Source of the DNA: an uncultured Clostridia bacterium
Lineage (GTDB): Bacteria; Bacillota; Clostridia; Christensenellales; UBA1242
Assembly: GCA_937992055.1 (NCBI GenBank)
Contig: CALKLQ010000041.1
Span: 23,962-87,961, forward strand
DNA length: 64,000 nucleotides
Direction of reading: 5' to 3'
Part shown: positions 11,027-25,079 of the stretch, one piece after another
Layout: each line of letters opens with the position of its first letter
How positions within the stretch are numbered: position 1 is the first letter of the stretch
Position numbers and translations under genes: made by a program
The notes under the pieces: model-generated
Databases searched by the model: none
What the model was told of the DNA's origin: nothing
Seen by the model: the letters and a program-made list of their open reading frames with translations, nothing else

Positions 11027-11065
11027 GGGCTGTTAGCTCAGTTGGTAGAGCAACTGACTCTTAAT
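11027..11065 (+). pseudogene. 5' half of a disrupted chromosomal tRNA-Lys(CUU); attL
   Basis: GGGCTGTTAGCTCAGTTGGTAGAGCAACTGACTCTTAAT ends in the anticodon loop and is followed by unrelated sequence. Joined to 23837..23873 it gives a perfect 76-nt cloverleaf ending in CCA. Confidence 0.9.
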
Positions 11066-11086
11066 AAGATAGCCAGCATTAAATGT

Positions 11087-11162
11087 GGGTCATTAGCTCA
11101 GTTGGCAGAGCACTTGACTCTTAATCAAGGTGTCCGGGGTTCGAGCCCCCGATGACCCACCA
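11087..11162 (+). tRNA. tRNA-Lys (anticodon CUU), element-borne complete copy
   Basis: 76 nt: acceptor GGGTCAT/ATGACCC, D arm TAGCTCAGTTGGCAGAGCA, anticodon arm CTTGA-CTCTTAA-TCAAG, T arm CGGGG-TTCGAGC-CCCCG, encoded CCA. The sequence differs from the disrupted host copy. Confidence 0.92.
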
Positions 11163-11165
11163 CTC

Positions 11166-11192
11166 AAACCCTTATAAAATAAGGGTTTTTTT
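11166..11192 (+). terminator. rho-independent terminator after the element tRNA-Lys
   Basis: AAACCCTTA-TAAAA-TAAGGGTTT followed by a T run. Confidence 0.75.
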
Positions 11193-11224
11193 AATGTGTT
11201 GCATAAAAAATTTTTTTGTTTTTT

Positions 11225-11324
11225 TGACCCTTATTTTACAACTTTTTACTAAAAAAAATTGCTAAAATTTAGACTTTTTTTCGACTACTTTTTTTCGACC
11301 TTTACAAGGGTCAAACAAGGGTCA
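11225..11324 (+). repeat. AAGGGTCA motif cluster (candidate integrase arm-type sites), attL side
   Basis: CAAGGGTCAAACAAGGGTCA at 11305-11324 overlaps the integrase stop codon. An inverted copy TGACCCTT lies at 11225-11232. The same 20-mer recurs at 23770-23789. Confidence 0.55.
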
Positions 11325-12332
11325 ATTTTGCAACTCTATATAATAATCATTATATAGCTTTTTAATTTTTTCTAAAATTTTTGTTTTATCTTCGTAAACA
11401 ACGATATTTGTATATATATCCATAGTGATTCCAATTTCAGAATGTCCCATGTTCATTTGAACTTGTTTTGCCGGAGTTCCTAAATAATATTGATTAGTAG
11501 CATAACTATGTCTAAGACAATGTAACGTTCCTGTAATATTCAACTCCGCAAGATAATCTTTGAACATGTGAGTAACGTAGCTTCCGTTATAGTTAAAAAT
11601 CTTTCCTTCTTTATAAATTAAATTTTTTAAATTTTCTGTTATTCTTATAAATCTATCGGCATTATCTGTTTTGGTTCCCTTTATATGGATAACATTATTG
11701 TTTTTAAAATCTTTGGAAGTCAATGTCAAAGCCTCACTCCTTCTCACTCCTGTTGCTAAATAGAAAAGTATTAGTTTGTAATGTTCATAGTTTGTTTGCT
11801 TTATTTTTGATAATAATTTTTCTTGCTCTTCTATTGTAAAAGCTTTTCTGACATTTTTGATTTTTTTATCTTTAACAACAAGCTTGAACGGGTTCTTTTT
11901 AATAAATTCCAAATCTTCAGCTTTTTGCAAACAGGCATTGAAATATGTAATAATAAGTTCCTTTGTTCTTGTTTTTGGAAGTTTATTTAAATATGGTTGT
12001 AAATTATTTATGGTTATCTCATCAAGATTGTAATTTCCAAAATTTTTAACTATGTAATTTTTTAATAAGCTTTGAATCTCTCTCCCCGTTTGTTCTGCGA
12101 CAAAAGGTTTTTTGTAATTGTCAAACCAAAAGTCCGCCCACGTTTTTAATTTATATATGCAATTCGTTGTTTTGTTCTTTTTTTCCTTCTGCTCTTTTTT
12201 TAGAGCTTTTATTTTTTCATCTCTTTTTTTAACCAGCTTTGACCTATCTTTTGAGTAAACTGAGTATTGTTTAGAATCAAAATAAAATCTAAGTTCAAAT
12301 CTGTTATCTTTTCTATATCTTATTGTAGACAT
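11322..12332 (-). CDS. int: tyrosine recombinase / phage integrase
   Basis: 336 aa. Catalytic blocks ATGVRRSEALTL (Arg), HCLRHSYATNQY (H-x-x-R) and GHSEIGITMDIYTNI (His...Tyr). AGGAGGAGG RBS. Sits beside the split tRNA. Confidence 0.92.
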   Translation of the reverse strand: MSTIRYRKDNRFELRFYFDSKQYSVYSKDRSKLVKKRDEKIKALKKEQKEKKNKTTNCIYKLKTWADFWFDNYKKPFVAEQTGREIQSLLKNYIVKNFGNYNLDEITINNLQPYLNKLPKTRTKELIITYFNACLQKAEDLEFIKKNPFKLVVKDKKIKNVRKAFTIEEQEKLLSKIKQTNYEHYKLILFYLATGVRRSEALTLTSKDFKNNNVIHIKGTKTDNADRFIRITENLKNLIYKEGKIFNYNGSYVTHMFKDYLAELNITGTLHCLRHSYATNQYYLGTPAKQVQMNMGHSEIGITMDIYTNIVVYEDKTKILEKIKKLYNDYYIELQN

Positions 12333-12540
12333 TTCCTCCTCCTTTATTATTTCAGAGTCGGAATTTCCTTTTATAAATGGGTTAGCCTCCCTAATTAACC
12401 TTGTAATTTGTGACCTTTTTCTTTCTTTTACTCCTTGTTTAAAGGCTAAAAATTCATTGCCACTTTTTAAAATATAATTATGAATGTTATTTGCTAATTG
12501 TTGAAAAATTTTTTAATTCTTCCATTATCTCTCTCATTTC

Positions 12541-12885
12541 TTAAATTTTCTTTAGTTTAAATGATTCACTTCTACCGCTTAAGCCTGACAAATAAATTTC
12601 GGCAGTATTTAATAAGTCTTCGTCTAATTGCAATATCATGTCGATACAATTTTTCTGTTGTTCAGTGTACTGCGTTTTAAAAGCTATTTCTTGTTTGACT
12701 TCATTGCCTATTAAATAATCAACAGACACATTAAAATAATTCGCAAGTTTTATAAGAGTTCTTATATCAGGTTCTCTTATGTTATTTTCCCATTTTGATA
12801 TAAGCGTTTGTTTGTATCCAGTAATTTTTGCAATATCTTTTTGTGTTTTTTTATTAATCTTTCGCAATTCTTTAATTTTTAACAT
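12541..12885 (-). CDS. XRE-family HTH regulator (cI-like repressor candidate)
   Basis: 114 aa. N-terminal HTH TQKDIAKITGYKQTLISKWENNIREPDIRTLIKLANYFNVSVDYLIG. Divergent from the + strand early genes. Confidence 0.8.
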   Translation of the reverse strand: MLKIKELRKINKKTQKDIAKITGYKQTLISKWENNIREPDIRTLIKLANYFNVSVDYLIGNEVKQEIAFKTQYTEQQKNCIDMILQLDEDLLNTAEIYLSGLSGRSESFKLKKI

Positions 12886-12951
12886 TTTTTCCTCCTTAAA
12901 ATTAACTTAACACTATTAGTAATAATTTTTTAATATTTTTAATAAAAATAG

Positions 12952-12996
12952 TTGACAAAACGGAATATTTTTCATATATTAATAATAAATATTCCT
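12952..12996 (+). promoter_or_regulatory. sigma-A-type promoter with candidate operator
   Basis: TTGACA (12952-12957), 17-nt spacer, TATATT (12975-12980). The perfect 9-bp inverted repeat GGAATATTT (12962-12970) / AAATATTCC (12988-12996) brackets the -10 box. Confidence 0.5.
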
Positions 12997-13044
12997 ATTA
13001 GGATTATCCTTAAGGTAATCATTAGGAATTTCAAGGAGGTAAAA

Positions 13045-13284
13045 ATGAAAACAACGATAAATAAAGATCAAGTTATTGAAGAGCTAAGAAAAGAAAATCA
13101 AACATTAAAAAATCGACTTGCTTTGATTGAAATAAAAAATGAACTTTCTATCGAAGACAAAATGCAAGCTATTAAGCAATATTTTGAATTTTGTTGTATC
13201 GATTCTACTACTAGCTTAAGAGCAGACGATTATACAAATATCATAACTTTTGAGAAATATTTAAAGGGAGAATTTGAAAAATGA
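13045..13284 (+). CDS. hypothetical protein (79 aa)
   Basis: ATG at 13045 follows AAGGAGG. The track ORF from 12952 begins upstream inside the promoter. Coiled-coil-like N-terminus. Confidence 0.5.
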   Translation: MKTTINKDQVIEELRKENQTLKNRLALIEIKNELSIEDKMQAIKQYFEFCCIDSTTSLRADDYTNIITFEKYLKGEFEK

Positions 13285-13454
13285 AAACAATGTACATTTT
13301 AAAAACAAGCACTTCAAAATTCGTATTTACAGATTTAGAAATGGCTATGAAAAAATTCTATGACTACGAAACTTTGGGACTTCCTGCGAAGGTTATTAAA
13401 TCTGAAGTAGGCTTATTAAATGAAAAACAAACAGTTCTTCACTGTTCTGTATAA
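13281..13454 (+). CDS. hypothetical protein (57 aa)
   Basis: Below the track size cut-off. ATGA start/stop overlap with the previous gene. Reads MKTMYILKTSTSKFVFTDLEMAMKKFYDYETLGLPAKVIKSEVGLLNEKQTVLHCSV. Confidence 0.4.
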   Translation: MKTMYILKTSTSKFVFTDLEMAMKKFYDYETLGLPAKVIKSEVGLLNEKQTVLHCSV

Positions 13455-13463
13455 GAGTAAATG
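13423..13463 (+). repeat. ~41-bp direct repeat, copy A
   Basis: AAAAACAAACAGTTCTTCACTGTTCTGTATAAGAGTAAATG, near-identical to 13845-13886. Contains the hairpin AACAGT/ACTGTT. Confidence 0.8.
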
Positions 13464-13484
13464 AAATTTAAGTAAATCTATAGT

Positions 13485-13724
13485 TTAAATTTTTAAACTC
13501 TTTAAAAGTTCTTTTCTTTTCTCTTCTGTATCTATTTCTAATAGTTCATCGGCGGAAATATCAAAAATAACAGACATTTTTCTAAGATTATCAAAATCTG
13601 GTTTTAACCTTCCCTTTTCCCATAAAGAAACTGTGTCTTGTGAAACATTAAATAGCTTTCCAAATTGAGTTTGATTGAGTTTATTTAAATTTCTATATTC
13701 TTTTATTATTTGATAATATTTCAT
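13485..13724 (-). CDS. XRE-family HTH regulator (small, Cro/cI-type)
   Basis: 79 aa. NQTQFGKLFNVSQDTVSLWEKGRLKPDFDNLRKMSVIFDISADELL is a canonical XRE HTH. Confidence 0.8.
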   Translation of the reverse strand: MKYYQIIKEYRNLNKLNQTQFGKLFNVSQDTVSLWEKGRLKPDFDNLRKMSVIFDISADELLEIDTEEKRKELLKSLKI

Positions 13725-13785
13725 GAATTAATTATATACTAAAGTTTTTGGTATTTAAAAATAACGAAAAATAGTCGTAAAATAA

Positions 13786-13814
13786 TTGACTTACGAATAT
13801 AATTAGTATATAAT
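13786..13814 (+). promoter_or_regulatory. near-consensus sigma-A promoter of the long + strand operon
   Basis: TTGACT (13786-13791), exactly 17 nt, TATAAT (13809-13814). About 300 nt upstream of the first ORF. Confidence 0.65.
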
Positions 13815-13844
13815 ACGAAGAAAGTTAGTAAATAACCACAAATA

Positions 13845-13886
13845 AAAAACAAACAGTGTTGCACTGTTCTGTATAAAGAGCGAATG
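13845..13886 (+). repeat. ~41-bp direct repeat, copy B
   Basis: AAAAACAAACAGTGTTGCACTGTTCTGTATAAAGAGCGAATG. Hairpin AACAGTG/CACTGTT. Lies just downstream of the promoter. Confidence 0.8.
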
Positions 13887-13975
13887 CAATAGGCAAAGGT
13901 ACTTTTCCCTTTCGCTCGTTCCTCCAAAAAAATTAAAGGTGGTGATGCCAGGACAATAAACAACATCAAATTATC

Positions 13976-14042
13976 ACTTTTCGAAACTAGGCTTTGCCTA
14001 GTCAATAGGAATTGACCGCCCTATTCTGATGAGATAGGTCAA
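13976..14042 (+). ncRNA. hammerhead ribozyme, type II topology (candidate)
   Basis: C(11.1)-GAA-A[CTAGGC-TTT-GCCTAG]T-C(17) | [AATAGG-AATTGACCGC-CCTATT]-CTGATGA-G(10.1). All invariant core nucleotides are in the correct order. GUC cleavage triplet with the scissile bond at 14003/14004. Stems I and III are capped and stem II forms from the flanks. Loop I TTGACC is complementary to GGTCAA at 14037-14042. Confidence 0.75.
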
Positions 14043-14118
14043 GCGCGCTTTAAGTTAGCCCACTTTAAAAAGGCAAAAAAAAACAAAAATTAAAATAAAA
14101 AAAAGAAGGTAAAGAAGA

Positions 14119-14415
14119 ATGAATGAATTTATGAGTAAAGGTATAGTCATTGGAAAACAAGAAAGTTATGAGTACGAAGGAAAAACATATTACAAACTTC
14201 CATTATTATTAGGTGTTCCTGATTCGGACGGCCATTTTACTGATAAAGCTGTTGTAGGTTCTGCTAAAGGACAAACTCCAATTTTAAAAGATGAAGAAAT
14301 ATATTTTGGGGCACCAATAATGTGCACAGTGAATGTTAAAACTTTTGATGGCAAAACAACTTATGTTTGCTCTGACGTTCAAATTCTAGAAAAAAAAACA
14401 AAAGTAGAAAAATAG
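14119..14415 (+). CDS. hypothetical protein (98 aa); ssDNA-binding role is only a positional guess
   Basis: First gene of the operon, with an AGAAGG RBS. Small and beta-rich-looking, no TM segment. No motif recognised. Confidence 0.5.
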   Translation: MNEFMSKGIVIGKQESYEYEGKTYYKLPLLLGVPDSDGHFTDKAVVGSAKGQTPILKDEEIYFGAPIMCTVNVKTFDGKTTYVCSDVQILEKKTKVEK

Positions 14416-14462
14416 ATTTGTCAACAATAGACAATCTACCATTTTAAAAAAAAGGAGAAAAA

Positions 14463-14681
14463 ATGGCATATAAAAATTCTAATGGTGATGAACAGTTTAC
14501 ATTAAAAGAGAAAATTGATTATCACAATTCTTGTGCTAACACGGGAAAAACACCTAGCGGTGAAAAACTTTCTTTTAGTGAAAGATATAATCACATGCAA
14601 GCTTCTGCTAGATGTCGTCGCAAATTAGGTACATTTATGAAAACGGTTAATGTTGTAAATTCAACTAATAAGAAAAAATAA
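14463..14681 (+). CDS. hypothetical protein (72 aa)
   Basis: AAGGAG RBS. Basic C-terminus, no TM segment. Confidence 0.5.
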   Translation: MAYKNSNGDEQFTLKEKIDYHNSCANTGKTPSGEKLSFSERYNHMQASARCRRKLGTFMKTVNVVNSTNKKK

Positions 14682-14832
14682 GTTAAAAATAATTTAATAA
14701 GCTGTAAGCCCTAGCCTACTGACTAGGCACAAAAATTGTAGCTTAAGCAATTTTTAAATTTAATAATTAAAATCGAAACTTAAACTAGCTGTGTTGTACT
14801 CATGGCTAGTTTTGTTTCTTAAAAGGAGAAAA

Positions 14833-16932
14833 ATGAAAAAAGTTTTTAAAATTTTGTTATGGATATTATTAATAATTTTTATTCTTTTTTTAATTGCTGA
14901 TTTGCTTTTTGTTATTAAAGAAAAATTAAATTGGAATTTTAGTTTTGGTGAAAATAAAACTTATGAAAAAGAAAAACTCGAAAATGGTTTAACAACGCAA
15001 ATAAATGGTGATTTAACAAAAGAAGAAATTGAAAAGGAAAAAAATGATATTGAAGCACCTTTGCATGATGATATTTTTAAAGATTTTTTAATTTGTGAAA
15101 CTGGCGATTATGTAATAATTTATCGTAAAGTAGAAACAAATGGAAAAATTATTTTTCCAAACTTGTCATTTATTAAAACTGCTAATAATTTACAATTTGA
15201 CGGAACTTTAGGCTTGACTGCTGAAATTGGGACTAATTGGTGGACTGGCGCTCATGATTTCAATAATATAAGGTTTACTTATGATTACTCAGGAAATTTT
15301 AATTATGATAAAAAAATGAGTTGGAATACTGATTGGAAAAATATTTTTGTTTTAGGAATTAAAGGTTTTTTGACTGATATAGGTTCGCAAGACAACTTTG
15401 TTTCATTTCGTAATTTTACTGAAAAATTTTGTAATAACTTTTGGAATATGAATGTTTTTGCTAAAATCGCAATGAATAAACAAAGTGAATTAAATAAACT
15501 ACATGATGTTACAAAAAAATATATCTATCAAAATATTTTGCCTTATTTTCAAAATCTTAATGATAATATTGAGTTTATTATGCCTGATAAAAATTTATCA
15601 ACAGATGTGCGTTTAAGTCAAATAATGAGCTTAACGAATTCATATGCTACATATCTTTGGAAAACAGTTAAAACATCAAATAAGTCAGAAAGTTTTAAAA
15701 ATGTTAATATTTCAAGTTTTTTTGCAAAATTTATTTATGACGAAAATATTTATAAACAATATCCAATACCAGAAAACAAAAAATCTGAATATCCGAATCA
15801 AGAATATTACAAAGTTTATAATTGTCAAATTTTTGCTTCGTGTAGCTATAAATATTTTGATATAGATTTGCCGGGTGAGCCGGTTGTTGATGATGATTAT
15901 GTAGTGGTTTTGCCTCCAGAAGATAATAAAGAATATTGTAAAGTTACAATCAAATTAAAAAATTCTAACTCTTCTGATTTAACTAATTTTATAATTAGTG
16001 AACAACCTGTAAAAATTTCAATTGCTGGTAAAGACCTTGTTTTTGATAGCTTAGAAAAATTAAATTATGGTTGCACTATTGCTTTAGAACAATCTAAGAC
16101 TTATTCCTATTCAATTTTAAGTAATGGTTTGATTTTTGAAAGTTATTCTGGAAATTTTTATATTCAAAATGAAAATTCAACAATTGTAAATTTTAATTAT
16201 ACTTATCAATACGGTTATGCTCTTTGTAAAATTATGCTTCATCCTGTTGGTGAAATTGATTTATCTCAAGTTGATTTGATTAATAACCCTGTAATTATTA
16301 ATTTGAAAAGTAAGGTTAATAACTATAATTATACCTTAACATTTAATTCTTTGGATAAATTTAATAATGGAATTAGCCAATTAATTCATTTAGGTGAATA
16401 TACTTATACGATTTCAAGTCAAGTTTTAAGTTTCTCTCCAGGCAATGGGGATATTAATGTTACAACAGAAAATAGATATTTTAATTTTACTTATACTCAA
16501 ATTACCTCATTTAATTTTTCTTTTAATTGTACAATTGACCAATTTGAGAAGGTACCAGCAGAAACAGATCCAATAAAAGAACATGAGTCTGTGTATTTAA
16601 AGGTTTGTGGACTTGACTTAAATTCTCAGTCTTCGTTTTCATTTTTGGAAAATGTTTTTGGCGAAAGCCTTACAATTTCTTTAATAGTTTTTAAAAACAC
16701 AACTCAAATTGTTTCTTATGGAACTTTTCTATTAGGAACAAACTTAAATGGAAATTGTTTCCGGTCTCTACCAAGTGGCTTTAAAACTTTGGAAAACGGC
16801 GAAACATATACTATTCAATTTATTTTTAATTCTGAAGTAAACACTGGTGTAAGTTATTCAAGTCCTCCAATAGAGTTTACTTATGCAACTTATAAAATTT
16901 CAAGGTTTAATATAACCTTGCAAGAAATTTAA
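14833..16932 (+). CDS. large N-terminally membrane-anchored Asn-rich surface protein
   Basis: The ATG at 14833 follows AAAGGAG, whereas the track start at 14791 is upstream of that RBS. Signal-anchor KILLWILLIIFILFLIADLLFVI, then about 670 aa with no recognised family. Confidence 0.7.
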   Translation: MKKVFKILLWILLIIFILFLIADLLFVIKEKLNWNFSFGENKTYEKEKLENGLTTQINGDLTKEEIEKEKNDIEAPLHDDIFKDFLICETGDYVIIYRKVETNGKIIFPNLSFIKTANNLQFDGTLGLTAEIGTNWWTGAHDFNNIRFTYDYSGNFNYDKKMSWNTDWKNIFVLGIKGFLTDIGSQDNFVSFRNFTEKFCNNFWNMNVFAKIAMNKQSELNKLHDVTKKYIYQNILPYFQNLNDNIEFIMPDKNLSTDVRLSQIMSLTNSYATYLWKTVKTSNKSESFKNVNISSFFAKFIYDENIYKQYPIPENKKSEYPNQEYYKVYNCQIFASCSYKYFDIDLPGEPVVDDDYVVVLPPEDNKEYCKVTIKLKNSNSSDLTNFIISEQPVKISIAGKDLVFDSLEKLNYGCTIALEQSKTYSYSILSNGLIFESYSGNFYIQNENSTIVNFNYTYQYGYALCKIMLHPVGEIDLSQVDLINNPVIINLKSKVNNYNYTLTFNSLDKFNNGISQLIHLGEYTYTISSQVLSFSPGNGDINVTTENRYFNFTYTQITSFNFSFNCTIDQFEKVPAETDPIKEHESVYLKVCGLDLNSQSSFSFLENVFGESLTISLIVFKNTTQIVSYGTFLLGTNLNGNCFRSLPSGFKTLENGETYTIQFIFNSEVNTGVSYSSPPIEFTYATYKISRFNITLQEI

Positions 16933-16956
16933 AAAAAAATAAAAGGAGATAAAAAA

Positions 16957-17190
16957 ATGGATAAAACAAAAATTATATGGACTTCAATATTTGGAGTTGT
17001 TGGAGTAATAGTCGCAACAATATTAATGTGGCTTTGCTTGTATTTAATCGTTCCAAACATAAAGGACGGAACTGATAAACTCTTCAAATGGAATGATTAC
17101 GCTGTGGAGCAAGAGCAAGACGATATCACAGAAACAACTCAAAACTCCCCTAATACTGAAAATATTGAAGTTATAACACCCGCAAATTGA
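16957..17190 (+). CDS. small membrane protein (77 aa)
   Basis: AAGGAG RBS. One long hydrophobic segment IIWTSIFGVVGVIVATILMWLCLYLIV and an acidic C-terminal tail. Confidence 0.6.
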   Translation: MDKTKIIWTSIFGVVGVIVATILMWLCLYLIVPNIKDGTDKLFKWNDYAVEQEQDDITETTQNSPNTENIEVITPAN

Positions 17191-17198
17191 GGTGTTAT

Positions 17199-18770
17199 AT
17201 GAAAAGAAATATTATTTTAATTAGTTGCTCAATTTTAATATTGGCAACAATGGTTTATGGAATTTACATTAAAAATCAAGAAAAAATAAATACTGATTTA
17301 ACAATGCAAAACAACACTTTGATTTTGCAAATAGACTCGACTGTTGATAGATTAAATAAACTACAAGAAGACTATGACCTACTTAAGCAAACTCATGAGA
17401 GCACACTTGCTCAGTTAGATAAAGAACGTAGACAATTTGACTTTGACAGACAAAGATTTACTGAACAAGTGGAAAACTTGAGAGGTCAAGTTTTGGAATT
17501 ATCATTAAACAAAATAGAAAATGAAGAGAGAATAGCAGAACTAGAAGCTGAAATAGAAGACTTAAACCAACAAATAGCAAATTTAGATGCTCAAATTTTA
17601 GCTTTAGAAACTGAAAATGCCGGACTACTTTCAAGTGTTAATAATTATGAAACTCAGATTTCAAACTTGAATGGTCAAATTGACGATATGGTCGCAGAGT
17701 TCAATGCCAAAAATGAACTTTGGCAAAAACTAATTAATGGAACTATTACAGAAATTACCGCAGAAGACCTTGAAGGTGTGACTGAAATTAGACCATATGC
17801 TTTTTACGATTGTCAAACTCTTAGGTCTATAGAATTTTCTAATACAATTACAAAAATTGGTTCGAGTGCATTTTATCAATGTAGTCTTTTGTCTTCAATA
17901 GAAATTCCTGATAATGTAACAACTATTGGGGCTAATGCTTTTTTAAATTGTTTTAATCTTTCCTCAATTAAACTTTCTGATAATCTATCAAATATTCCTA
18001 ATAGTGCTTTCGCAGGTTGTAATAAACTTACTTCAATTGCAATTCCTGATAGTGTTTCAAGTATTAGTTATGAAGCTTTTCAATCTTGTTCGAAATTAAA
18101 CTCTGTTACTTTTGGTGATAATAGCGAACTTACTCAAATTGGTGCTTATGCTTTTCGTTCTTGCGGTAATTTAAATAATGTTATTCTTCCAGTTGCCCTG
18201 ACAAGTATAGGAAACGGTGCTTTTTCGAAATGTTCAAGCTTATCAACAATTAATATTCCAAATAGCGTAACAACTATTGACGCTAATGTTTTTTCTGAAT
18301 GTACCAGTTTGACGTCAATTAAACTTCCTAATAATATAACAAAAATTAGTAGTAATCTTTTTGGAAAGTGTAGTGGTTTGACTTCTATAGAAATTCCTAA
18401 TAATGTGACGATTATTGAAACTGATTCTTTTCAATATTGTACAAATTTATCATCAATAAATATTCCAAATACTGTTACATCTATTGGTCTTCGTGCATTT
18501 TATTATTGTTCTAGCCTTATTTCAATTGAAATTCCTGATAGTGTTGCAAGTATGGATGGACATATATTTTTTGGTTGTTCAAATGAGCTATCAATTATAA
18601 TGAAACGTTCGACTCCTCCTACATGTGCTAATGTTTTATATGGTTTCTATGGAAAAGTCTATGTTCCAGATTCGGCTTTAGAAAGTTATAAAACATCTCC
18701 TGGTTGGTCAGATAAAGCTTCAATAATTTATTCAGTCAGTGAATACGAGGCATTGCAAGAAGTAGCATGA
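17199..18770 (+). CDS. membrane-anchored coiled-coil + BspA-type leucine-rich-repeat protein
   Basis: ATG at 17199 follows GAGG. N-terminal anchor, then a ~150 aa heptad-rich segment (LELSLNKIENEERIAELEAEIEDLNQQIANLDAQILALETEN). About 12 repeats follow of I-x-I-P-x-x-V-T-x-I-G-x-x-A-F-x-x-C-x-x-L-x-S, the LRR_5/BspA type. Confidence 0.8.
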   Translation: MKRNIILISCSILILATMVYGIYIKNQEKINTDLTMQNNTLILQIDSTVDRLNKLQEDYDLLKQTHESTLAQLDKERRQFDFDRQRFTEQVENLRGQVLELSLNKIENEERIAELEAEIEDLNQQIANLDAQILALETENAGLLSSVNNYETQISNLNGQIDDMVAEFNAKNELWQKLINGTITEITAEDLEGVTEIRPYAFYDCQTLRSIEFSNTITKIGSSAFYQCSLLSSIEIPDNVTTIGANAFLNCFNLSSIKLSDNLSNIPNSAFAGCNKLTSIAIPDSVSSISYEAFQSCSKLNSVTFGDNSELTQIGAYAFRSCGNLNNVILPVALTSIGNGAFSKCSSLSTINIPNSVTTIDANVFSECTSLTSIKLPNNITKISSNLFGKCSGLTSIEIPNNVTIIETDSFQYCTNLSSINIPNTVTSIGLRAFYYCSSLISIEIPDSVASMDGHIFFGCSNELSIIMKRSTPPTCANVLYGFYGKVYVPDSALESYKTSPGWSDKASIIYSVSEYEALQEVA

Positions 18771-19612
18771 AAAACAAAGTAACAACTATTACATACTCAG
18801 ATTACGTTAAATATTTAACTGCCAAGCCATATGGAATAAATATTATATTTGGCCAAAAGGGCTCCGGTAAAACGGCATTAAACACTGTCTTTGGACTTTG
18901 GGAAATGGCAATGAGACAACGATACTTACAATGCTTATCTGAGATTGAGCTTTTAAAAGAGGAAAGGGTGCGTGAGTACTCTTCCCCTCCTCAAGCTCAC
19001 TGCGTTTTTACAAGTCCTAACTATTCCATAGTAGACAACTGGAAATTTGGAAGAGGCAAGAAAACATCATATTCATATAACCCCTATCATTTCAATATTC
19101 CAAACATGCGTATTGAGTATGATATTTATCCACCATATTCAACTTTCCATTGCATGGAAGCCCAAGCACCTTTAAATTCCAGGCAATCAAAGAACTTCCC
19201 TTCCGAAACCTCTAGAGCCTATGAAAATGAACGTCATCCAAACTATTTGATTTGGCTAGACTGCCAAAGGTTAGGCTTGGTCGATTTAAACGTTAGAGAA
19301 ATAACGGACTGGTTCATAACTCCAATTGCCCTGGAGCATAAATATAATTCTCTCAATGTAATGACTGGAACAATCTTTCATACCCTTTGCTTTGACAGCC
19401 TTTTAAAAGCAGAAAGATATGTTGAAACTGAGGATATTTTTCTAGGCAAACTTGTAGATTTCGTTTTCGAAGGCGGTTGCGTTTTTAATTGCTACTCCTC
19501 TTTTGGTAATAAAAAAATCTTTTTTGAAACTGATAAAGACTTTGAATACGTTAGCAGTCAAGACCCAAATTCTGCCTCGCTTTTAGCACCAAAAAATTAT
19601 TATAAAGGATAA
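18767..19612 (+). CDS. Zot/pI-like P-loop NTPase (candidate morphogenesis ATPase)
   Basis: 281 aa. Walker A GQKGSGKTA. FHCMEAQ and ERHPNYLIWLDCQ align by eye with the DEAQ and HRHxGxD-hhh-TQ blocks of the Zot family. ATGA overlap with the upstream gene. Confidence 0.6.
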   Translation: MKNKVTTITYSDYVKYLTAKPYGINIIFGQKGSGKTALNTVFGLWEMAMRQRYLQCLSEIELLKEERVREYSSPPQAHCVFTSPNYSIVDNWKFGRGKKTSYSYNPYHFNIPNMRIEYDIYPPYSTFHCMEAQAPLNSRQSKNFPSETSRAYENERHPNYLIWLDCQRLGLVDLNVREITDWFITPIALEHKYNSLNVMTGTIFHTLCFDSLLKAERYVETEDIFLGKLVDFVFEGGCVFNCYSSFGNKKIFFETDKDFEYVSSQDPNSASLLAPKNYYKG

Positions 19613-19617
19613 GAACT

Positions 19618-20085
19618 ATGATACTTAAATTTGAAAGTTTAGAAGAATTAAATAACTACTATTATGACCAACTTAACACCCTCGCCTTTAATTCTCAAAA
19701 TTTTAATAATGCTATCACTTCAATGTTCGAGAAAAACATTTTAAAAGCTTACAAGGCTTCATTTTTGGAACTGACCGCAGACGATAACTTTATCTCAAAA
19801 TATAATTTGAAAAAAGTTAAATACCTACGCAAGCAATTCATTTTAAAATACAAGCTCGAAAAGAAAAAGTTTAAAGCAATATTAAAATTAAGCTCCAAGA
19901 AAGAAAAACGTAAATTAAGAGCATTTATTAAACAGTCTAAAAAACAGGCAAAACAAAAACTTAAAGTAGAGCGAAAAGAAAAACGTCAAATCTTCTTTTC
20001 AAACCTCAAACAAAAACGCAAAGCTCGTTGGGCTAAGTTTATTCAAATCTTTAAAAGGAAAAAACATGAGAAAAAAACAAAATAA
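19618..20085 (+). CDS. hypothetical Lys/Arg-rich protein (155 aa)
   Basis: The C-terminal 90 aa are mostly K/R (KKKFKAILKLSSKKEKRKLRAFIKQSKKQAKQKLKVERKEKRQ...). Confidence 0.55.
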   Translation: MILKFESLEELNNYYYDQLNTLAFNSQNFNNAITSMFEKNILKAYKASFLELTADDNFISKYNLKKVKYLRKQFILKYKLEKKKFKAILKLSSKKEKRKLRAFIKQSKKQAKQKLKVERKEKRQIFFSNLKQKRKARWAKFIQIFKRKKHEKKTK

Positions 20086-20413
20086 AAAACGATTTGCTAA
20101 AAATGAATTTCGTTATAATTATTATACTAAACATGAAAATTTTATTTTTGAAGAAGATGGTGATAATTTTCATTCTTTGGGGTTGACCCATAATAAGCAA
20201 ACAAAAGATAAAAATAAAAAATGGCATAAGAATATGCCATTAAATAAAAACCCTCAAAAGAATAAAACTGAAACATCTTATTTAAGATATGGAGTTATAA
20301 CTCAAAATAAAAAAACTTTTTCAAATAAACCTGATAAGCGCTTTGTTTTTGATGATAGTGATAAAGCAAGTGTAAAGTCAAAAATTAGAAATTATAAAAA
20401 AAAGAGAAAATAA
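20066..20413 (+). CDS. hypothetical Lys-rich protein (115 aa)
   Basis: Overlaps the previous gene by 20 nt. Basic at both termini. Confidence 0.5.
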   Translation: MRKKQNKKRFAKNEFRYNYYTKHENFIFEEDGDNFHSLGLTHNKQTKDKNKKWHKNMPLNKNPQKNKTETSYLRYGVITQNKKTFSNKPDKRFVFDDSDKASVKSKIRNYKKKRK

Positions 20414-20417
20414 AAAA

Positions 20418-20474
20418 ACAAATACTTTTCTGCTTGGGTTACCCCATAGAAGCATAGCTTCTTTAAGTATTTGT
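20418..20474 (+). other. two-tier stem-loop between the structural block and rep
   Basis: ACAAATACTT (20418-20427) pairs with AAGTATTTGT (20465-20474) and encloses the hairpin AGAAGC-ATA-GCTTCT (20448-20462). Confidence 0.5.
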
Positions 20475-20538
20475 TGTAATTATTATATTCTATTTAACTA
20501 AAATTTGTCAACATTTTTTTATAAAAAAAGGAAAAGTG

Positions 20539-21507
20539 ATGAAATACATAGATTTTCTTTTAAAAAAGAGATATTCAAGAAACGTTGTTATTCCTGCTTT
20601 AAAGAAGTTGGGTTTTGAAAATAAAGCCCAAAAACTTGAAGAATGTGGGAATTTTAAACGTTTAGCTGTTTGTAAAAAATGCGGTTGTATTCATTATAAC
20701 GGTGCAAATTCATGCAAAGACCGCTTTTGTCCTGTCTGCCAAAAGAAAAGAGCTTTACTTTGGATATTAAAAGTCTACCCTATTTTTGAAGATTTAATAA
20801 GCCGGGGGTATATAGTCAATTTCATAACTTTGACAGTTCCAGACGGTGACAATTTAAAAGAACGCTTGAATATTTTAAATAATTCTTTTAGATACATGCT
20901 TCATGAAAATTCAAAATCAAGATATTCTTTTAACAATATATATTTGGGTGGAATTCGTTCGCTAGAAGTTAAAAAAGGCAGATTCTCTAATCTTTGGCAT
21001 CCCCACCTTCATATGCTTGTCGTAAAAAAAATAAAGACAGATTTTAGAGAAGATAGAAAACTTTTAACTGAAGCTTGGGCAAATGCCTTAACAAAAACAA
21101 CTGGTATTTATCATTCACCGCAAAAGGTAATTATAGACATTAAAAGTTTGTATCTTGTAGACAAAATAACGGGTCAAAAAAAATACTCTAAATTTGCTAT
21201 TCTAAAGGCTTGTTTGGAAGTCTTTAAATATTTAGTGAAATCAAATTTTGAAGAACTAGCATGTAAAGAACTTATAAAAACCATGTCTAGTATTCGCGGA
21301 ATTAACCCTTGGGGAAACGTCCGCTATCTTCTCCACGACAAAAATATTGAATTAACTATTGAACATGAATTAGACATGTCAGAAAATGAACTAAGTGATA
21401 AAGTCTGTGCAATATGCGGAAACGATGATTTTATTCAAATTAAAAATGTTGGCGTGTATGGTCAAAAAATTTATGATTTAAAAAATAAAAAAACGGAGGT
21501 AAACTGA
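20539..21507 (+). CDS. rep: rolling-circle replication initiator, pC194/Rep_1 (HUH) family
   Basis: Cys cluster CKKCGCIHYNGANSCKDRFCPVCQKKRALLW, HUH motif WHPHLHMLVV and catalytic Tyr motif LEVFKYLVKS. The ATG at 20539 lies one codon inside the track GTG start. Confidence 0.88.
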   Translation: MKYIDFLLKKRYSRNVVIPALKKLGFENKAQKLEECGNFKRLAVCKKCGCIHYNGANSCKDRFCPVCQKKRALLWILKVYPIFEDLISRGYIVNFITLTVPDGDNLKERLNILNNSFRYMLHENSKSRYSFNNIYLGGIRSLEVKKGRFSNLWHPHLHMLVVKKIKTDFREDRKLLTEAWANALTKTTGIYHSPQKVIIDIKSLYLVDKITGQKKYSKFAILKACLEVFKYLVKSNFEELACKELIKTMSSIRGINPWGNVRYLLHDKNIELTIEHELDMSENELSDKVCAICGNDDFIQIKNVGVYGQKIYDLKNKKTEVN

Positions 21508-21508
21508 A

Positions 21509-21874
21509 ATGGCAAAATATATTGAACAATATAAAGCGGAAATTCAAGCATATGAGAGTGCTAAAATAAAAGCTGAAAATGCGGTTTTTAAATATGCGGT
21601 AATTACCCGCATGCTTTTTAATCGTTTGAAATTTATGGTGTCAAAAATCGATGATTGCAAATCTACCCTATTTTTAAAAATTAAAGAAAGTGGTTTGTAT
21701 GAAAACTTTGATGATGAAATAAATGATGTAATTTTTAGAATAGATTATTTGAGAGAAACTTTAAAAGGTGTAATTGATTCGGAAATAGGAAAAGACATAA
21801 TAAAATTAATAGATACTCCTGCCTTTAATCATAAGATAAATAAATTAAAGGAGATTATAGATAATGAAGTCTGA
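21509..21874 (+). CDS. hypothetical protein (121 aa)
   Basis: Starts 1 nt after the rep stop. Helical-looking, no family recognised. Confidence 0.5.
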   Translation: MAKYIEQYKAEIQAYESAKIKAENAVFKYAVITRMLFNRLKFMVSKIDDCKSTLFLKIKESGLYENFDDEINDVIFRIDYLRETLKGVIDSEIGKDIIKLIDTPAFNHKINKLKEIIDNEV

Positions 21875-22718
21875 ACAAGATTCTATAACTAGAAACACCC
21901 TTATAACTTTATTTAATTCTTTTGATGAGGATATCTCTTCAGAAGAAACAATTTCTTCTTTTGAAGAAGAGAAAAAACGTGTACAAGGTTGTCTTCGAAT
22001 GATACAATCAAATTTTGTTCGTCTTGGTTGGCATTTGAAGAAACTAAAAGAGGAATTTAAAGATAATATAACAAAAACATATTTTGAAGCTAGAGGTCAT
22101 TATTGTCGTAACATCTACGATTTTGCCCAACAAGAATTTAATTTGAGCAAATCTTCTGTTAAGAGATTAATTGCAATTGTAGATAAATTTTGTTTAAAAA
22201 ATGATATTGAACTAGTAGAATTAAAAGAAGAATTTAAGCCTTATTCATATTCTCAACTTTCTGAGATGTTGCCACTAAATAATGAACAGCTTTCAAAGGT
22301 TAATTCTGCTATGTCAAAAAGAGAAATAAGAGCTTTAGGGAAAAGTGGCCCGCCGGCGGGCCAAAAAATACAAAGTGAGGAAAATAGCGGTATTCAGCGA
22401 TTTTACAAGTTAAAAAATAAGGATATTCGCTTAAATTTTTTAAAAAACTATCGCAAATGGACCTTAAAAGCAAAGGTTGAAAATCTAAGCTTATACATCT
22501 ATTCTTGCCCACTTTCAAATGGAGATTTAATGTTAATGTTTGAAACAAGATATTTTAATTCAAGTTATGGTAAGGAAGCAGTTTCAAAACTTTTAACTTT
22601 CCAGCGAAAGCAAGATAACTGTATATGCTTGTTTGACACATCTCAAAGTGATTTTTTGCAAAAAATGATAAATCTAGACGTAGGCATTGACCCTGACGTT
22701 GTTTTATCTGATGACTAA
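21864..22718 (+). CDS. hypothetical protein (284 aa)
   Basis: Overlaps the upstream gene by 11 nt. Contains the GC palindrome at 22347-22362. No family recognised. Confidence 0.55.
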   Translation: MKSEQDSITRNTLITLFNSFDEDISSEETISSFEEEKKRVQGCLRMIQSNFVRLGWHLKKLKEEFKDNITKTYFEARGHYCRNIYDFAQQEFNLSKSSVKRLIAIVDKFCLKNDIELVELKEEFKPYSYSQLSEMLPLNNEQLSKVNSAMSKREIRALGKSGPPAGQKIQSEENSGIQRFYKLKNKDIRLNFLKNYRKWTLKAKVENLSLYIYSCPLSNGDLMLMFETRYFNSSYGKEAVSKLLTFQRKQDNCICLFDTSQSDFLQKMINLDVGIDPDVVLSDD

Positions 22719-22727
22719 TAATAAAAA

Positions 22728-22758
22728 CTCATGCAAAAACTTGTATGAGGCTTTTTTT
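22728..22758 (+). terminator. rho-independent terminator of the long operon
   Basis: CTCATGCAA-AAAC-TTGTATGAG (9-bp stem with one G.U) followed by GCTTTTTTT. Confidence 0.75.
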
Positions 22759-22874
22759 AATCGCATAACCTCTCCCCTGGGGTTTCGCAAATATTTTTCT
22801 TTATTAGCCCAAAAAGCATGCAAACAAATGAGAACACAGTCAAATGGACTTCGAAGGCGTGTTCGGGCTTATCT

Positions 22875-23105
22875 CGGCAAACATTAAAAAGCGCGGAGTT
22901 TGAGGTGCGAAACCTCAAGAGGGAATAAGTTTTTCTCGGTAAAACTACTCAAAGCTAAAATGAGCAAATTTGCTTATTCGTGAATGTTTGCCGCTGATTA
23001 ATTAATAACGGCGCTAGCCTATTTAGAAAAAAAAGAAAAGCAGGAGAAACGGGAAAGCTTTGCGCCGTTTCCCTGCTTTTCTCCTATTGGGTTTGCTTGC
23101 AAACC
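22875..23105 (+). other. G+C-enriched multi-hairpin non-coding region (single-strand-origin-like)
   Basis: 11-bp long-range pairing CGGCAAACATT (22875-22885) / AATGTTTGCCG (22983-22993) encloses the hairpin TTGAGGT/ACCTCAA. An ~18-bp hairpin spans 23034-23052 / 23065-23082. A GGGTTTGC/GCAAACCC hairpin spans 23088-23105. Confidence 0.4.
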
Positions 23106-23510
23106 CTTTTAACTTGATACTATAGAAACAAATGGGGCAAAAATATTGAAAATTGACCATTTTTTAAAACCTGCAAATCGCTACAACCCGCAAAAAATAA
23201 GGCATTGAGGCACTTTTAAAGAAAATCAAAAAATGAAATTTTTACATCAGTGTAGTGCAAACCCGCTGAAAATAAGGGATTGAGGCCCCTCAAACCTCAA
23301 AAAAATCACTCGTCACGAGATAAAATCACTCGCCTCAAGTGATTTTTTGGTCTATTTTTACCTATCCCAAAATGGCTGAAAGCCTTATATTTTCTAGCAA
23401 AAACGCACTTCCGCAATTCTCAAAATCACAAAAATTCAATTTTTGTTGATTTTTGTTAATTTTCTGTAAAAACCAACCTTTTGATAGTTTATGTTTAAAT
23501 TTGACTATAA

Positions 23511-23562
23511 AAATACAATATATGGTATAACTTGATATATATAAATACTATATATTGTATTT
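23511..23562 (+). promoter_or_regulatory. candidate double-strand origin (dso): hairpin with CTTGATA nick motif in the loop
   Basis: 17-bp stem 23511-23527 / 23546-23562 (one G.T). The 18-nt loop TAACTTGATATATATAAA carries AACTTGATA, the pC194/phiX174-type nick sequence. A second AACTTGATA lies at 23111-23119. Confidence 0.6.
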
Positions 23563-23769
23563 ATTAAGCTTTTATACCAAGTTTAAAACTATTTTCCATA
23601 ATATTAATAAAATAAAAAGGCTAAGTCATTGACCTAGCCTTTAAAGTATCAATAGCCTAATGACGATGCTAACACATAGCATTTACCTAGATAATGGCGT
23701 TTATATTAGGACTTACTTTGATACTCAATATTATCATATGCAAAAATCTTTGTCAATATAATTATATTT

Positions 23770-23789
23770 CAAGGGTCAAACAAGGGTCA
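23770..23789 (+). repeat. AAGGGTCA tandem motif (candidate integrase arm-type site), attR side
   Basis: CAAGGGTCAAACAAGGGTCA, identical to 11305-11324. Confidence 0.55.
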
Positions 23790-23826
23790 GGACTCTCAAT
23801 GCCTTATAAATAAAGGTATAAATTTC

Positions 23827-23873
23827 GACTCTTAATCAGTGGGTCCGGGGTTCGAGTCCCCGACAGCCCACCA
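23827..23873 (+). pseudogene. 3' half of tRNA-Lys(CUU), copy 1; attR of the 12.8 kb element
   Basis: GACTCTTAATCAGTGGGTCCGGGGTTCGAGTCCCCGACAGCCCACCA. Completes the 5' half at 11027-11065. Confidence 0.9.
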
Positions 23874-23876
23874 CTC

Positions 23877-23902
23877 AAACCCTTATTTTATAAGGGTTTT
23901 TT
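23877..23902 (+). terminator. terminator after tRNA 3' half copy 1
   Basis: AAACCCTTA-TTTTA-TAAGGGTTT plus a T run. Same stem as the terminator at 11166-11192, with the loop inverted. Confidence 0.7.
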
Positions 23903-24135
23903 ATAACATAAAACTGAACATATAAAATGCCCAGCATGTTAAATATAATTTTTTCTTCTTTTAAATAGTTTTAATACAACTAAATAGATTGTTTATTAAC
24001 GGGAATTAAATTTTTCCCTCTACTTATATAGGGAGTAGTAATACACTAAACCTAGTTTTAGTTAGATATTTAAGGGAGTGTAGAGATTTGTAAGAACAAA
24101 TTTTTATTTGAAATTTAATAGTTTTATAATTTTAT

Positions 24136-24162
24136 ATAAAAAAACCTGCAATTTTGCAGGTT
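24136..24162 (-). terminator. rho-independent terminator for 24192..24716
   Basis: Minus strand reads AACCTGCA-AAAT-TGCAGGTT followed by TTTTTTT. Confidence 0.7.
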
Positions 24163-24191
24163 AATTTTTATTAAATTGAAGGTTCATCATC

Positions 24192-24716
24192 TTATCTTGA
24201 CATTCCATCTAAAATTTCGTCTTCTTTTTGTTTTTGAGTTATGTAGCTTTTATCATTAAAAATTTTTTCAAAATCTTTTAACTGTTTTATTGATACTTTA
24301 TTTTTGTCACCAATTAGTTTTTTTACAATATTATTTTTTATAATAAGATTATCAATAAACCAAAAACCCGAAATAAATTCTTCTAAAGTTTTCGCTTCAT
24401 AATTATCTATTCTAGTTTTTGCGAGTGCATAATCGTAGTAACCGTTCCAACCATTAGCGTCATAGCTATAATCATTTTTAGCAAGTTCTTCTTCTTCATC
24501 TTCTTTTGTTACTGCATTAGTAGTTATAGTGTTATTAGAAACATAATATGCTTTTCTTGGTTTATTAGGACTTACAATTGCAATATTATATTGTAATATG
24601 TCCATCATTTCCTCATCACCATCTCTATCAATGACAGGTTCTTCTCCAACTTTTGTTAGAACAACATAAACATTATCTAAATTTACTAATGTTTCATCAT
24701 TAAATTTATTTACCAT
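24192..24716 (-). CDS. hypothetical acidic protein (174 aa)
   Basis: The ATG at 24716 follows AAGGAG, whereas the track start at 24737 is upstream of that RBS. No family recognised. Confidence 0.55.
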   Translation of the reverse strand: MVNKFNDETLVNLDNVYVVLTKVGEEPVIDRDGDEEMMDILQYNIAIVSPNKPRKAYYVSNNTITTNAVTKEDEEEELAKNDYSYDANGWNGYYDYALAKTRIDNYEAKTLEEFISGFWFIDNLIIKNNIVKKLIGDKNKVSIKQLKDFEKIFNDKSYITQKQKEDEILDGMSR

Positions 24717-24950
24717 ATTAATACTCCTTATTAACAATAATATAACATTTAAACTTCGTCATGTCAATAGGGGTGAAAGATTAATTTTATTATATGCACT
24801 TAATCTTTCCTAATAAAAACAAAATTTTCTAATAATACTAAGAAAACTTGAACGATTTTTATACTATATAACACGAGTTTTGTGAGTGATATAAGAGGTT
24901 TTAAGGGCTTTGATAACACGAAAAACACTATCAAAAACTTTTATTTTGCT

Positions 24951-24995
24951 TCTCTTAATCAGTGGGTCCGGGGTTCGAGTCCCCGACAGCCCACC
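24951..24995 (+). pseudogene. 3' half of tRNA-Lys(CUU), copy 2 (orphan)
   Basis: CTCTTAATCAGTGGGTCCGGGGTTCGAGTCCCCGACAGCCCACCA, identical to 23829-23873. Followed by its own terminator AAACTAGG-TAAT-CCTAGTTTTTTT. Confidence 0.9.
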
Positions 24996-25079
24996 ACAAA
25001 ACTAGGTAATCCTAGTTTTTTTAATATAAAAAAAGCCCATAAGAGCTTTTTATTTAATTTATGTTTTAAAAATTTAATG

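Follow-up and report, generated by a model that had tools for sequence, protein, structure and literature searches.

The non-coding region 22719-23826 of a 64-kb stretch of DNA from an uncultured Clostridia bacterium (contig CALKLQ010000041.1; the whole stretch is designated here as the window) forms the right arm of a 12.77-kb element integrated in a host tRNA-Lys gene. The analysis of this region has revealed that it is probably the replication-and-integration control region of an integrated rolling-circle element, which in turn is probably inovirus-like, that is, similar to filamentous phages. The double-strand origin (dso) is predicted at the first of two nick motifs (copy 1), with the cut between G23116 and A23117, and the hairpins located just 5' of it constitute a plausible single-strand origin (sso) and/or packaging signal. 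No open reading frame (ORF) longer than 66 aa and no called gene of the public record were found in 22719-23826, in agreement with the original prediction for this DNA, which had described a non-coding origin region. The features listed in that prediction for 22760-23640 were all present, with coordinates within 1 nt, and its proposal of a replication origin belonging to an element with a pC194-family Rep protein has been upheld by a Rep_1 match and by the conservation of the block at copy 1. The coordinates of the features are presented in Table 1.

Conserved nick motif, Rep initiator and hairpin domain

The motif AACTTGATA is present only twice in the 64 kb, exactly where it had been reported, at 23111-23119 (copy 1) and 23529-23537 (copy 2), both on the + strand; this count by itself is not above chance, as 1.5 copies are expected per window. 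Each copy includes the nick core CTTGATA (23113-23119 and 23531-23537) on the + strand, which is the rep-coding strand. The CTTG/ATA sequence had been proposed as the nick core, and it is of the right kind: in pC194 the sequence ...TTCTTATCTTGATAATAAGGG..., found upstream of repA on the Rep strand, includes CTTGATA, and the published pC194 nick is placed after CTTG (PMC5037232). Copy 1 lies in CTTGATACTATAGAAACAAATGGGG, with the longer context CTTGATACTATAGAAACAAATGGGGCAAA (23113-23141), and its nick motif is predicted to be unpaired in the single-stranded DNA fold.

The comparison with the loci of relatives (numbered L002, L003 and so on) has revealed that the block ATAGAAAC-N3-TGGGGTAA precedes rep in all ten relatives examined (L006, L007, L009-L015 and L061), always at 40-70 bp upstream of the gene. 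Copy 1 differs at one position from the 17-mer CTTGATACAATAGAAAC, which in L009, L012 and L014 (Reps 33-36% identical) lies 55-65 bp before the start of rep, with 0-2 mismatches, and L006 agrees with the window at 19 of the 20 positions of ATAC.ATAGAAACAAATGGGG. The core CTTGATAC.ATAGAAAC (CTTGATA[C/A]..TAGAAA) is also present on the rep strand of 33 distinct Rep_1-encoding plasmid-like contigs, and just upstream of rep in two small IMG/VR contigs with Rep_1 genes. The DNA-pattern scans of IMG/VR yielded 31 and 85 matches, with a Rep_1 homologue in only 2 of these 116 loci, and the remaining matches look like chance. The origin has been assigned to copy 1 because this block is conserved by rep in the relatives, whereas copy 2 has neither the block nor a counterpart among them. 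The extended similarity of Rep_1 origins is found at site 1, and at site 2 it does not go beyond a core of 17 matches in 19 positions. The original prediction had placed the dso at 23511-23562, with the nick between G23534 and A23535 of copy 2, and had left copy 1 as a possible terminator; neither proposal is supported, since the conserved block sits at copy 1 and is kept next to rep in the ten relatives.

The Rep protein belongs to the Pfam family Rep_1 (E 8.8e-23) and is 28% identical to RepA of pC194 (E 5e-16). Residue E143, the HUH motif HPHLH (154-158) and the E227-x3-Y231 motif are invariant or nearly so in a 12-sequence alignment, and E143, E227 and Y231 correspond to Glu142, Glu210 and Tyr214, which are essential in pC194 RepA (PMC5703833). 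The Cys-rich N-terminus (...ANSCKDRFCPVC...) is common to pC194 RepA and gave weak scores against IS91 transposase models. About 13 close homologues were recovered in a search of 5.8 billion proteins. A genome scan with the single Rep sequence yielded nothing, the profile scan gave the relatives, the metagenome scan retrieved mostly distant Rep_1 plasmids, and the family is nearly absent from IMG/VR (2 distant matches). When Rep was compared with the GenBank phage set, only five records named "Inovirus sp." and one unclassified phage were matched. The GenBank record L258 (MT135314.1, "UNVERIFIED Inovirus sp.", circular, 7970 bp) includes two direct copies of a pC194-type origin (1104 and 5623) and two Rep matches, which suggests a cointegrate or a dimer made of two small, related replicons.

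The motif and a cognate Rep_1 protein with the catalytic Glu, HUH and Glu-x3-Tyr are found in the same element. As in the dso of the pC194 family, an E/HUH/E-x3-Y initiator is accompanied by CTTG/ATA on the rep strand, after a T-rich stretch and G+C-rich sequence, and the extended CTTGATAC.ATAGAAAC motif is common to many Rep_1 contigs. The arrangement differs from that family in that it is carried by a 12.8-kb integrated element instead of a small plasmid, with the origin 1.6 kb downstream of rep instead of just upstream, an additional conserved TGGGG(T/C)AA block, and a hairpin that holds a second, partial nick core 418 nt further on.

Some observations weigh against the assignment of the origin to copy 1. 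The tetranucleotide that precedes ATAC varies in the relatives (CTTG, CTAG, CTCG, GTTC, TTTA...), which makes the exact nick position in this clade uncertain, and copy 1 does not have the short flanking GTTTCT/AGAAAC inverted repeat of the plasmid-like contigs. Besides, the motif of the relatives lies just upstream of rep and could double as, or be, a rep promoter or operator. In the window, however, the block is kept at a place 1.6 kb downstream of rep where no gene follows, which argues for a function independent of rep transcription. Finally, the second nick core is non-random and is not explained by a model with a single origin at copy 1. The closest relatives (L003 and L005) and the window itself (20414-20535) do not have an origin block upstream of rep, and the block of the window follows two post-rep genes; it would seem that the origin module has changed its place in the element.

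Between the terminator of the rep operon and copy 1 the DNA becomes richer in G+C, as previously noticed, with values of 0.38-0.41 over 22700-23100 compared to 0.25-0.32 in the flanks. The helices described earlier were recovered, including 22875-22885/22983-22993 (11 of 11 bp), TTGAGGT/ACCTCAA, the hairpin 23034-23082 with an 18-bp stem (outer part 23034-23044/23072-23082) and GGGTTTGC/GCAAACCC at 23089-23106, the last one displaced by 1 nt. The single-stranded DNA fold of 22760-23135 reached -61.8 kcal/mol (z -4.6), none of 100 shuffles being as stable, and the z value of the domain ranged from -4.6 to -5.6 across foldings. As a control, ten 350-nt coding windows of the same element gave z values from +2.0 to -2.6, and three non-coding ones -5.2, -3.8 and -3.6. 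In the nine elements tested (the window and eight relatives) the 350 nt directly 5' of the motif showed z values from -4.2 to -9.7 on the + strand. Hairpins rich in G+C are located at the same position in all relatives examined, and most of them have a long one ending 10-60 nt before the motif. In the comparison with homologues, suggested in the original prediction for both the motif and the stems, the copy 1 motif and the upstream structure are kept, copy 2 has no counterpart in the relatives examined and the stem sequences are not kept.

This conserved position and structure make a function as minus-strand (single-strand) origin and/or packaging signal plausible. In the Ff phages the packaging signal and the minus-strand origin are found at the corresponding place upstream of the nick. 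As is generally known of the intergenic region of f1, M13 and fd, it is also gene-free, follows the last gene and has hairpins and then the plus-strand nick on the coding, packaged strand; it differs in having no sequence similarity to the region described here, in depending on gpII, of a different HUH family from Rep_1, and in that the present region also holds attP. Rolling-circle plasmids usually place the sso just upstream of the dso nick, on the displaced strand (PMC5037232; PMC5703833), and ssoA-type origins likewise have a long, strongly folded stretch on the displaced strand, a short distance upstream of the dso. The signature motifs of ssoA are the RSB sequence and CS-6 (TAGCGT/TAGCGA) (PMC4598088).

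With respect to this function, position and structure spoke for the role originally proposed, and the ssoA signatures spoke against it: no RSB-like match with 3 or fewer mismatches was found in the region, CS-6 is absent, with no TAGCG on the + strand of 22719-23866, and the region produced no blastn match to PLSDB plasmids or GenBank phages. Other points that tell against it are that the hairpin-domain sequences are unrelated between elements, and that the complementary strand reaches almost the same stability (z -4.25), so that folding in both orientations, as had been advised, showed both strands to be strongly structured. An ssoA-type origin has been ruled out, RSB and CS-6 being absent. 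In four relatives (L003 11410-11600, L005 5390-5540, L007 9690-9790 and L015 7350-7470) hairpins whose arms are tandem GTG(G/T)GTAA(A)GT / ACTT(A/T)TCCAC repeats occur upstream of the origin region, and none of this kind was found in the window.

Second nick core, direct repeats and competing explanations

The 17-bp hairpin with an 18-nt loop described at copy 2 does exist, with slightly different measures: 18-nt arms (23511-23528/23545-23562, 94% complementary), a 16-nt loop, -10.2 kcal/mol and z -4.1. Counting this one, the 64-kb window has only three hairpins whose arms are 17 nt or longer and 90% or more complementary. The word common to both copies has 10 nt (TAACTTGATA), and the copies align at 17 of 19 positions with one gap, a score reached in 7 of 500 shuffles; the placement of copy 2 is unlikely to be due to chance. 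Its context (GGTATAACTTGATATATATAAATAC) includes the nick core only, without the GAAAC..TGGGG block. No counterpart of copy 2 was found in the relatives examined; in this comparison the non-coding regions of L003 and L005 (Rep 64-67% identical) were incomplete and had unrelated hairpins, L002 does not differ at any position of the region (100% identity) and carries no selection signal, and L141 ends before it.

Quite possibly, if short of probably, copy 2 and its hairpin are unrelated to Rep and represent a vestigial duplicate, a hairpin for packaging or for the binding of a host factor, or a piece of an attP-arm promoter. Site 2 has an A+T-only sequence of low complexity and is overlapped on the minus strand by a promoter-like match, CTTGATA alone is common in the loci of relatives, and the G+C content from about 23350 on is lower than in the origin part, which suggests a separate module. 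Nevertheless, the 10-mer identity, the alignment with site 1 and the location in the loop of a rare hairpin are jointly improbable under this explanation.

A more doubtful alternative is that site 2 functions beside site 1 as a secondary, terminator-only partial origin, releasing a 418-nt single-stranded circle. A precedent is given in PMC7072734, citing Gros 1989: a truncated pC194 origin in direct orientation, downstream of a full one, is efficient in termination while it hardly initiates at all, and the DNA between the two leaves as a single-stranded circle. Two direct nick cores, one full and one partial, are common to the present region, to the engineered pC194 origin-plus-terminator cassettes (PMC7072734) and to the ori/ter ends of IS91; the interval is released as a single-stranded circle in those systems, whereas here the arrangement is natural, the 418-nt interval is non-coding and its use is putative. 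Site 2 is in direct orientation, has the nick core in common with site 1 and would be exposed in the loop once the strand is displaced. On the other hand, productive replication of the excised circle would also be aborted, only 10 contiguous nt are in common compared to the 36 bp of the pC194 terminator used, and site 2 has no comparative support. If such termination took place, it could act as a fail-safe against replication of the integrated copy into the chromosome and could also titrate Rep; the minicircle would have the junction ...GGTATAACTTG/ATACTATAGAAAC... and the reciprocal deletion ...CCCTTTTAACTTG/ATATATATAAATAC.... A specifically programmed terminator-only Rep site, generating a single-stranded DNA circle after 418 nt for chromosome protection or as a Rep-consuming copy control, is considered a long shot. 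To our knowledge, no natural origin-plus-decoy-terminator arrangement has been described for a phage or plasmid.

The two direct repeats located between the nick cores had been described as 26-bp iterons separated by 75 bp; the repeats are present as 27-nt units, while their reading as iterons is not favoured. Their interval is unstructured (z +0.3). The window has four occurrences of the repeat motif AAATAAGGSATTGAG, none of them outside 23195-23888, and the core AAATAAGG[C/G]ATTGAG occurs there in two direct and two inverted copies, one of the inverted copies being a 13/13 match (23795-23807) located 20 nt before the attR core. The 27-nt repeats also show 80-81% complementarity to the stretch that directly follows the host tRNA 3' half at attR, and a near-identical sequence also follows the tRNA carried by the element. 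As they resemble, in inverted orientation, the sequences adjacent to the attachment (att) core, the repeats may be recombination-arm sites rather than Rep iterons, which is a weak inference from sequence likeness. The tandem repeat CAAGGGTCAAACAAGGGTCA (23770-23789) is found again at 11305-11324, beside the end of int, and analogous tandem repeats abut int in L006. From these elements, namely the 27-nt repeats, the tandem GGGTCA repeats and the inverted 13-mer, 23143-23826 would be mainly the P arm of attP. It is rather unlikely that the 27-nt repeats are instead iterons bound by Rep as part of the dso, in the manner of pMV158 with its distant "bind" locus. The repeats are found on the downstream side of the nick, at distances of 70 and 145 nt, in pMV158 the bind locus is 84 bp from nic (PMC1851628), and ATAAGGG is common to the repeats and to the sequence just after the pC194 nick site; yet the relatives have rep directly after the motif, with no such repeats, and inverted copies of the repeat motif are found next to the att core and in the flank near the tRNA.

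The original AAAATCACTCG repeats and the near-palindrome (23616-23642) were also located in this part of the region. A good promoter-like site is present on the minus strand at 23756-23728. Transcription from there to the terminator (23642-23616 and its T-run) would produce an antisense RNA of about 115 nt, directed against the beginning of an ORF for a 39-aa hydrophobic protein (23694-23813, +); 23606-23813 could thus encode a small RNA or a pair similar to type-I toxin-antitoxin systems.

Initiation at the A+T-only hairpin itself, with the nick between G23534 and A23535 in an extruded loop and copy 1 reserved for termination, is improbable. The nick core does occupy the loop of one of only three such hairpins in 64 kb, its 10-nt identity and 17/19 alignment with site 1 are hardly expected by chance, and many rolling-circle initiators cut in hairpin loops (PMC5037232). 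Against this, site 2 is devoid of the ATAGAAAC..TGGGG block of all relatives examined, a comparable hairpin is found in no relative, and starting at site 2 and ending at site 1 would give a circle without 23117-23534, in which the upstream side of site 1 is linked to the downstream side of site 2 and the conserved block is lost. Furthermore, a 16-nt loop disfavours cruciform extrusion. Origins of the pC194 family are also often devoid of hairpins (PMC5037232). Very little speaks for 22760-23106 encoding a structured non-coding RNA instead of acting as folded single-stranded DNA: the domain is strongly structured and has terminator-like hairpins on the + strand at both ends (22728-22749 and 23089-23106), but Rfam searches at gathering thresholds and at E values up to 10 gave only noise, no promoter-like site lies upstream on the + strand, the start of the domain is variable in L141 (a 95%-identical copy that ends at 22844), and the relatives have unrelated sequences at the same position relative to the nick motif, which fits a hairpin function at the DNA level.

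Element borders, gene content and relation to inoviruses

When 11027-11065 is joined to 23837-23874, a perfect 76-nt tRNA-Lys(CTT) is obtained. The sequence of the intact tRNA-Lys(CTT) carried by the element is present in identical form beside the L002 copy of the element, which comes from a different sample, is 98.6-99.6% identical and is found in another host context, where at 12290-12408 of L002 it abuts a different tRNA acceptor end (..CCCCGAAGGTGCACCA) followed by a 5S-rRNA-like sequence; the element therefore uses tRNA-Lys genes in different genomic contexts. An att site at the tRNA 3' end has been ruled out by this junction and by the tRNA reconstruction. Both an integrase gene and a repeated core interrupting a tRNA gene, as in the att sites of tyrosine recombinases, are thus present. 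Elements that integrate in tRNA genes usually supply only the 3' part of the tRNA, whereas this one carries a complete tRNA-Lys, which likely takes the place of the host gene that was disrupted. The tRNA-Lys 3' half is present a third time at 24950-24997, 100% identical over 46 nt to 23829-23874. The segment of about 1.1 kb bounded by it (23837-24997) has a single 181-aa ORF (24192-24737, minus strand) with no family match, and seems to be a leftover, or a satellite, of a previous insertion at this site.

Table 1. Positions in the window of the features of the integrated element and of its non-coding right arm.
Feature	Positions	Strand	Description
attL core	11056-11065	+	GACTCTTAAT; anticodon loop of the split tRNA-Lys (5' half 11027-11065)
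Integrated element	11066-23836		12.77 kb; inserted in the anticodon loop of a host tRNA-Lys
Intact tRNA-Lys(CTT)	11087-11162	+	21 nt in from the left end
Tyrosine integrase	11322-12332	-	Pfam Phage_integrase, E 3.9e-14
Helix-turn-helix (HTH) regulator	12541-12885	-	
N-terminally anchored protein	14833-16932		699 aa
N-terminally anchored protein	16957-17190		77 aa
N-terminally anchored protein	17199-18770		523 aa; coiled coil and BspA-type leucine-rich repeats (LRRs)
Zot/pI-like P-loop ATPase	18767-19612	+	281 aa; Walker A GQKGSGKT
Two very basic proteins	19618-20085, 20066-20413		
Rep	20539-21507	+	
Two further proteins	21509-21874, 21864-22718		
Intrinsic terminator of the rep operon	22728-22758	+	Stem-loop (stem 22728-22749), then T-run
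G+C-rich multi-hairpin domain	22760-23030	+	Nested helices; candidate sso and/or packaging signal
Two stable hairpins	23034-23106	+	Directly 5' of the nick motif; -24.7 kcal/mol, z -4.8
Predicted dso core	23110-23142	+	TAACTTG/ATACTATAGAAACAAATGGGGCAAA; nick predicted at G23116/A23117
Two 27-nt direct repeats	23185-23211, 23260-23286	+	89% identical, 75 nt apart
Inverted repeat	23300-23348	+	Formed by the AAAATCACTCG repeats; z -4.7
A+T-only hairpin	23511-23562	+	Second TAACTTGATA (23528-23537) in the loop
Terminator-like site	23606-23642	-	Palindrome 23616-23642, then T-run
Tandem CAAGGGTCAA repeats and inverted 13-mer CTCAATGCCTTAT	23770-23789, 23795-23807	+	Putative integrase arm-type sites
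attR core	23827-23836	+	GACTCTTAAT; followed by the host tRNA-Lys 3' half (23837-23874)

The gene block of the element recurs in relatives from metagenome-assembled genomes of uncultured gut Clostridia. Rep, the ATPase and the other genes of the main block are encoded on the strand predicted to be nicked, with int and two HTH genes on the opposite one. Pfam Zot was matched by 4 of the 11 members of the ATPase family (best E 2.1e-8), and the ATPase copy of a distant relative is also called Zot in its precomputed annotation. The family profile matched PDB 2r2a_A (E 2.5e-11), an entry with the database title "Uncharacterized protein" which we take to be the N-terminal domain of a Neisseria Zot protein. 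With regard to the small hydrophobic major coat protein expected in inovirus-like elements, the 77-aa protein has one transmembrane segment and is kept in L003 and L007, with no family match, and the searches produced no additional family matches for the other proteins of the element. The two proteins encoded after the ATPase are extremely basic, with 46 K+R in 155 aa and 33 K+R in 115 aa.

The element has in common with integrative inoviruses and inovirus-like prophages (PMC6813254) a Zot/pI-like ATPase, a rolling-circle Rep, an integrase with a tRNA att site, small and large membrane-anchored proteins, and the location of the main-block genes, Rep and ATPase on one strand. It is probably an integrated, inovirus-like element with rolling-circle replication. 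One observation points the other way: no hydrophobic 19-residue window scoring 1.6 or more, and hence no transmembrane segment, was found in the 281-aa ATPase, whereas Roux et al. 2019 (PMC6813254) required one or two such segments in a genuine pI protein of inoviruses. An ATPase without transmembrane segment followed by two very basic proteins (18767-20413) is unusual among described inoviruses, and further differences from the integrative ones are the BspA-type LRR protein, the own tRNA-Lys and a Rep family almost absent from IMG/VR.

Between the window and L002 there are 146 differences, 126 of them in the 500-bp bins 17000-17500, 18500-19000, 19000-19500 and 19500-20000. They affect mainly the genes of the LRR protein, the ATPase and the basic proteins, with none at 19893-23863, and this clustering suggests recombination patches in the surface-protein and ATPase module.

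Proposed replication cycle and significance

In the proposed cycle, the integrase would excise the element by recombination between the two GACTCTTAAT cores, giving a circle with the attP junction ...AAATTTCGACTCTTAATAAGATAGCC.... The pC194-family Rep would bind the conserved block ATAGAAACAAATGGGG and nick the + strand at CTTG/ATA, between G23116 and A23117. The 3'-OH would be extended while the old + strand is displaced, and Rep would close the single-stranded circle through Y231 and E227 once the site is regenerated. The domain 22760-23106, just 5' of the nick, would be displaced last and most likely fold as minus-strand origin and/or packaging signal. The order of parts is that of the Ff intergenic region, hairpin and then nick, and the sso and dso are as close as is usual in rolling-circle plasmids; the origin may work by analogy with the Ff intergenic region, with no sequence in common.

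The origin is an ordinary one of pC194 type, a previously unsampled example, and the current understanding of rolling-circle replication is unchanged by these findings. The only potentially non-routine feature is the second nick core in a hairpin loop, which matters only if it is a functional terminator. The results map the origin of a rare family of phage-like elements from uncultured low-G+C gut Clostridia and extend the pC194-type nick region into phage-like elements, and the conserved Rep-associated block (ATAGAAAC..TGGGGTAA) is usable to find origins in related prophages.

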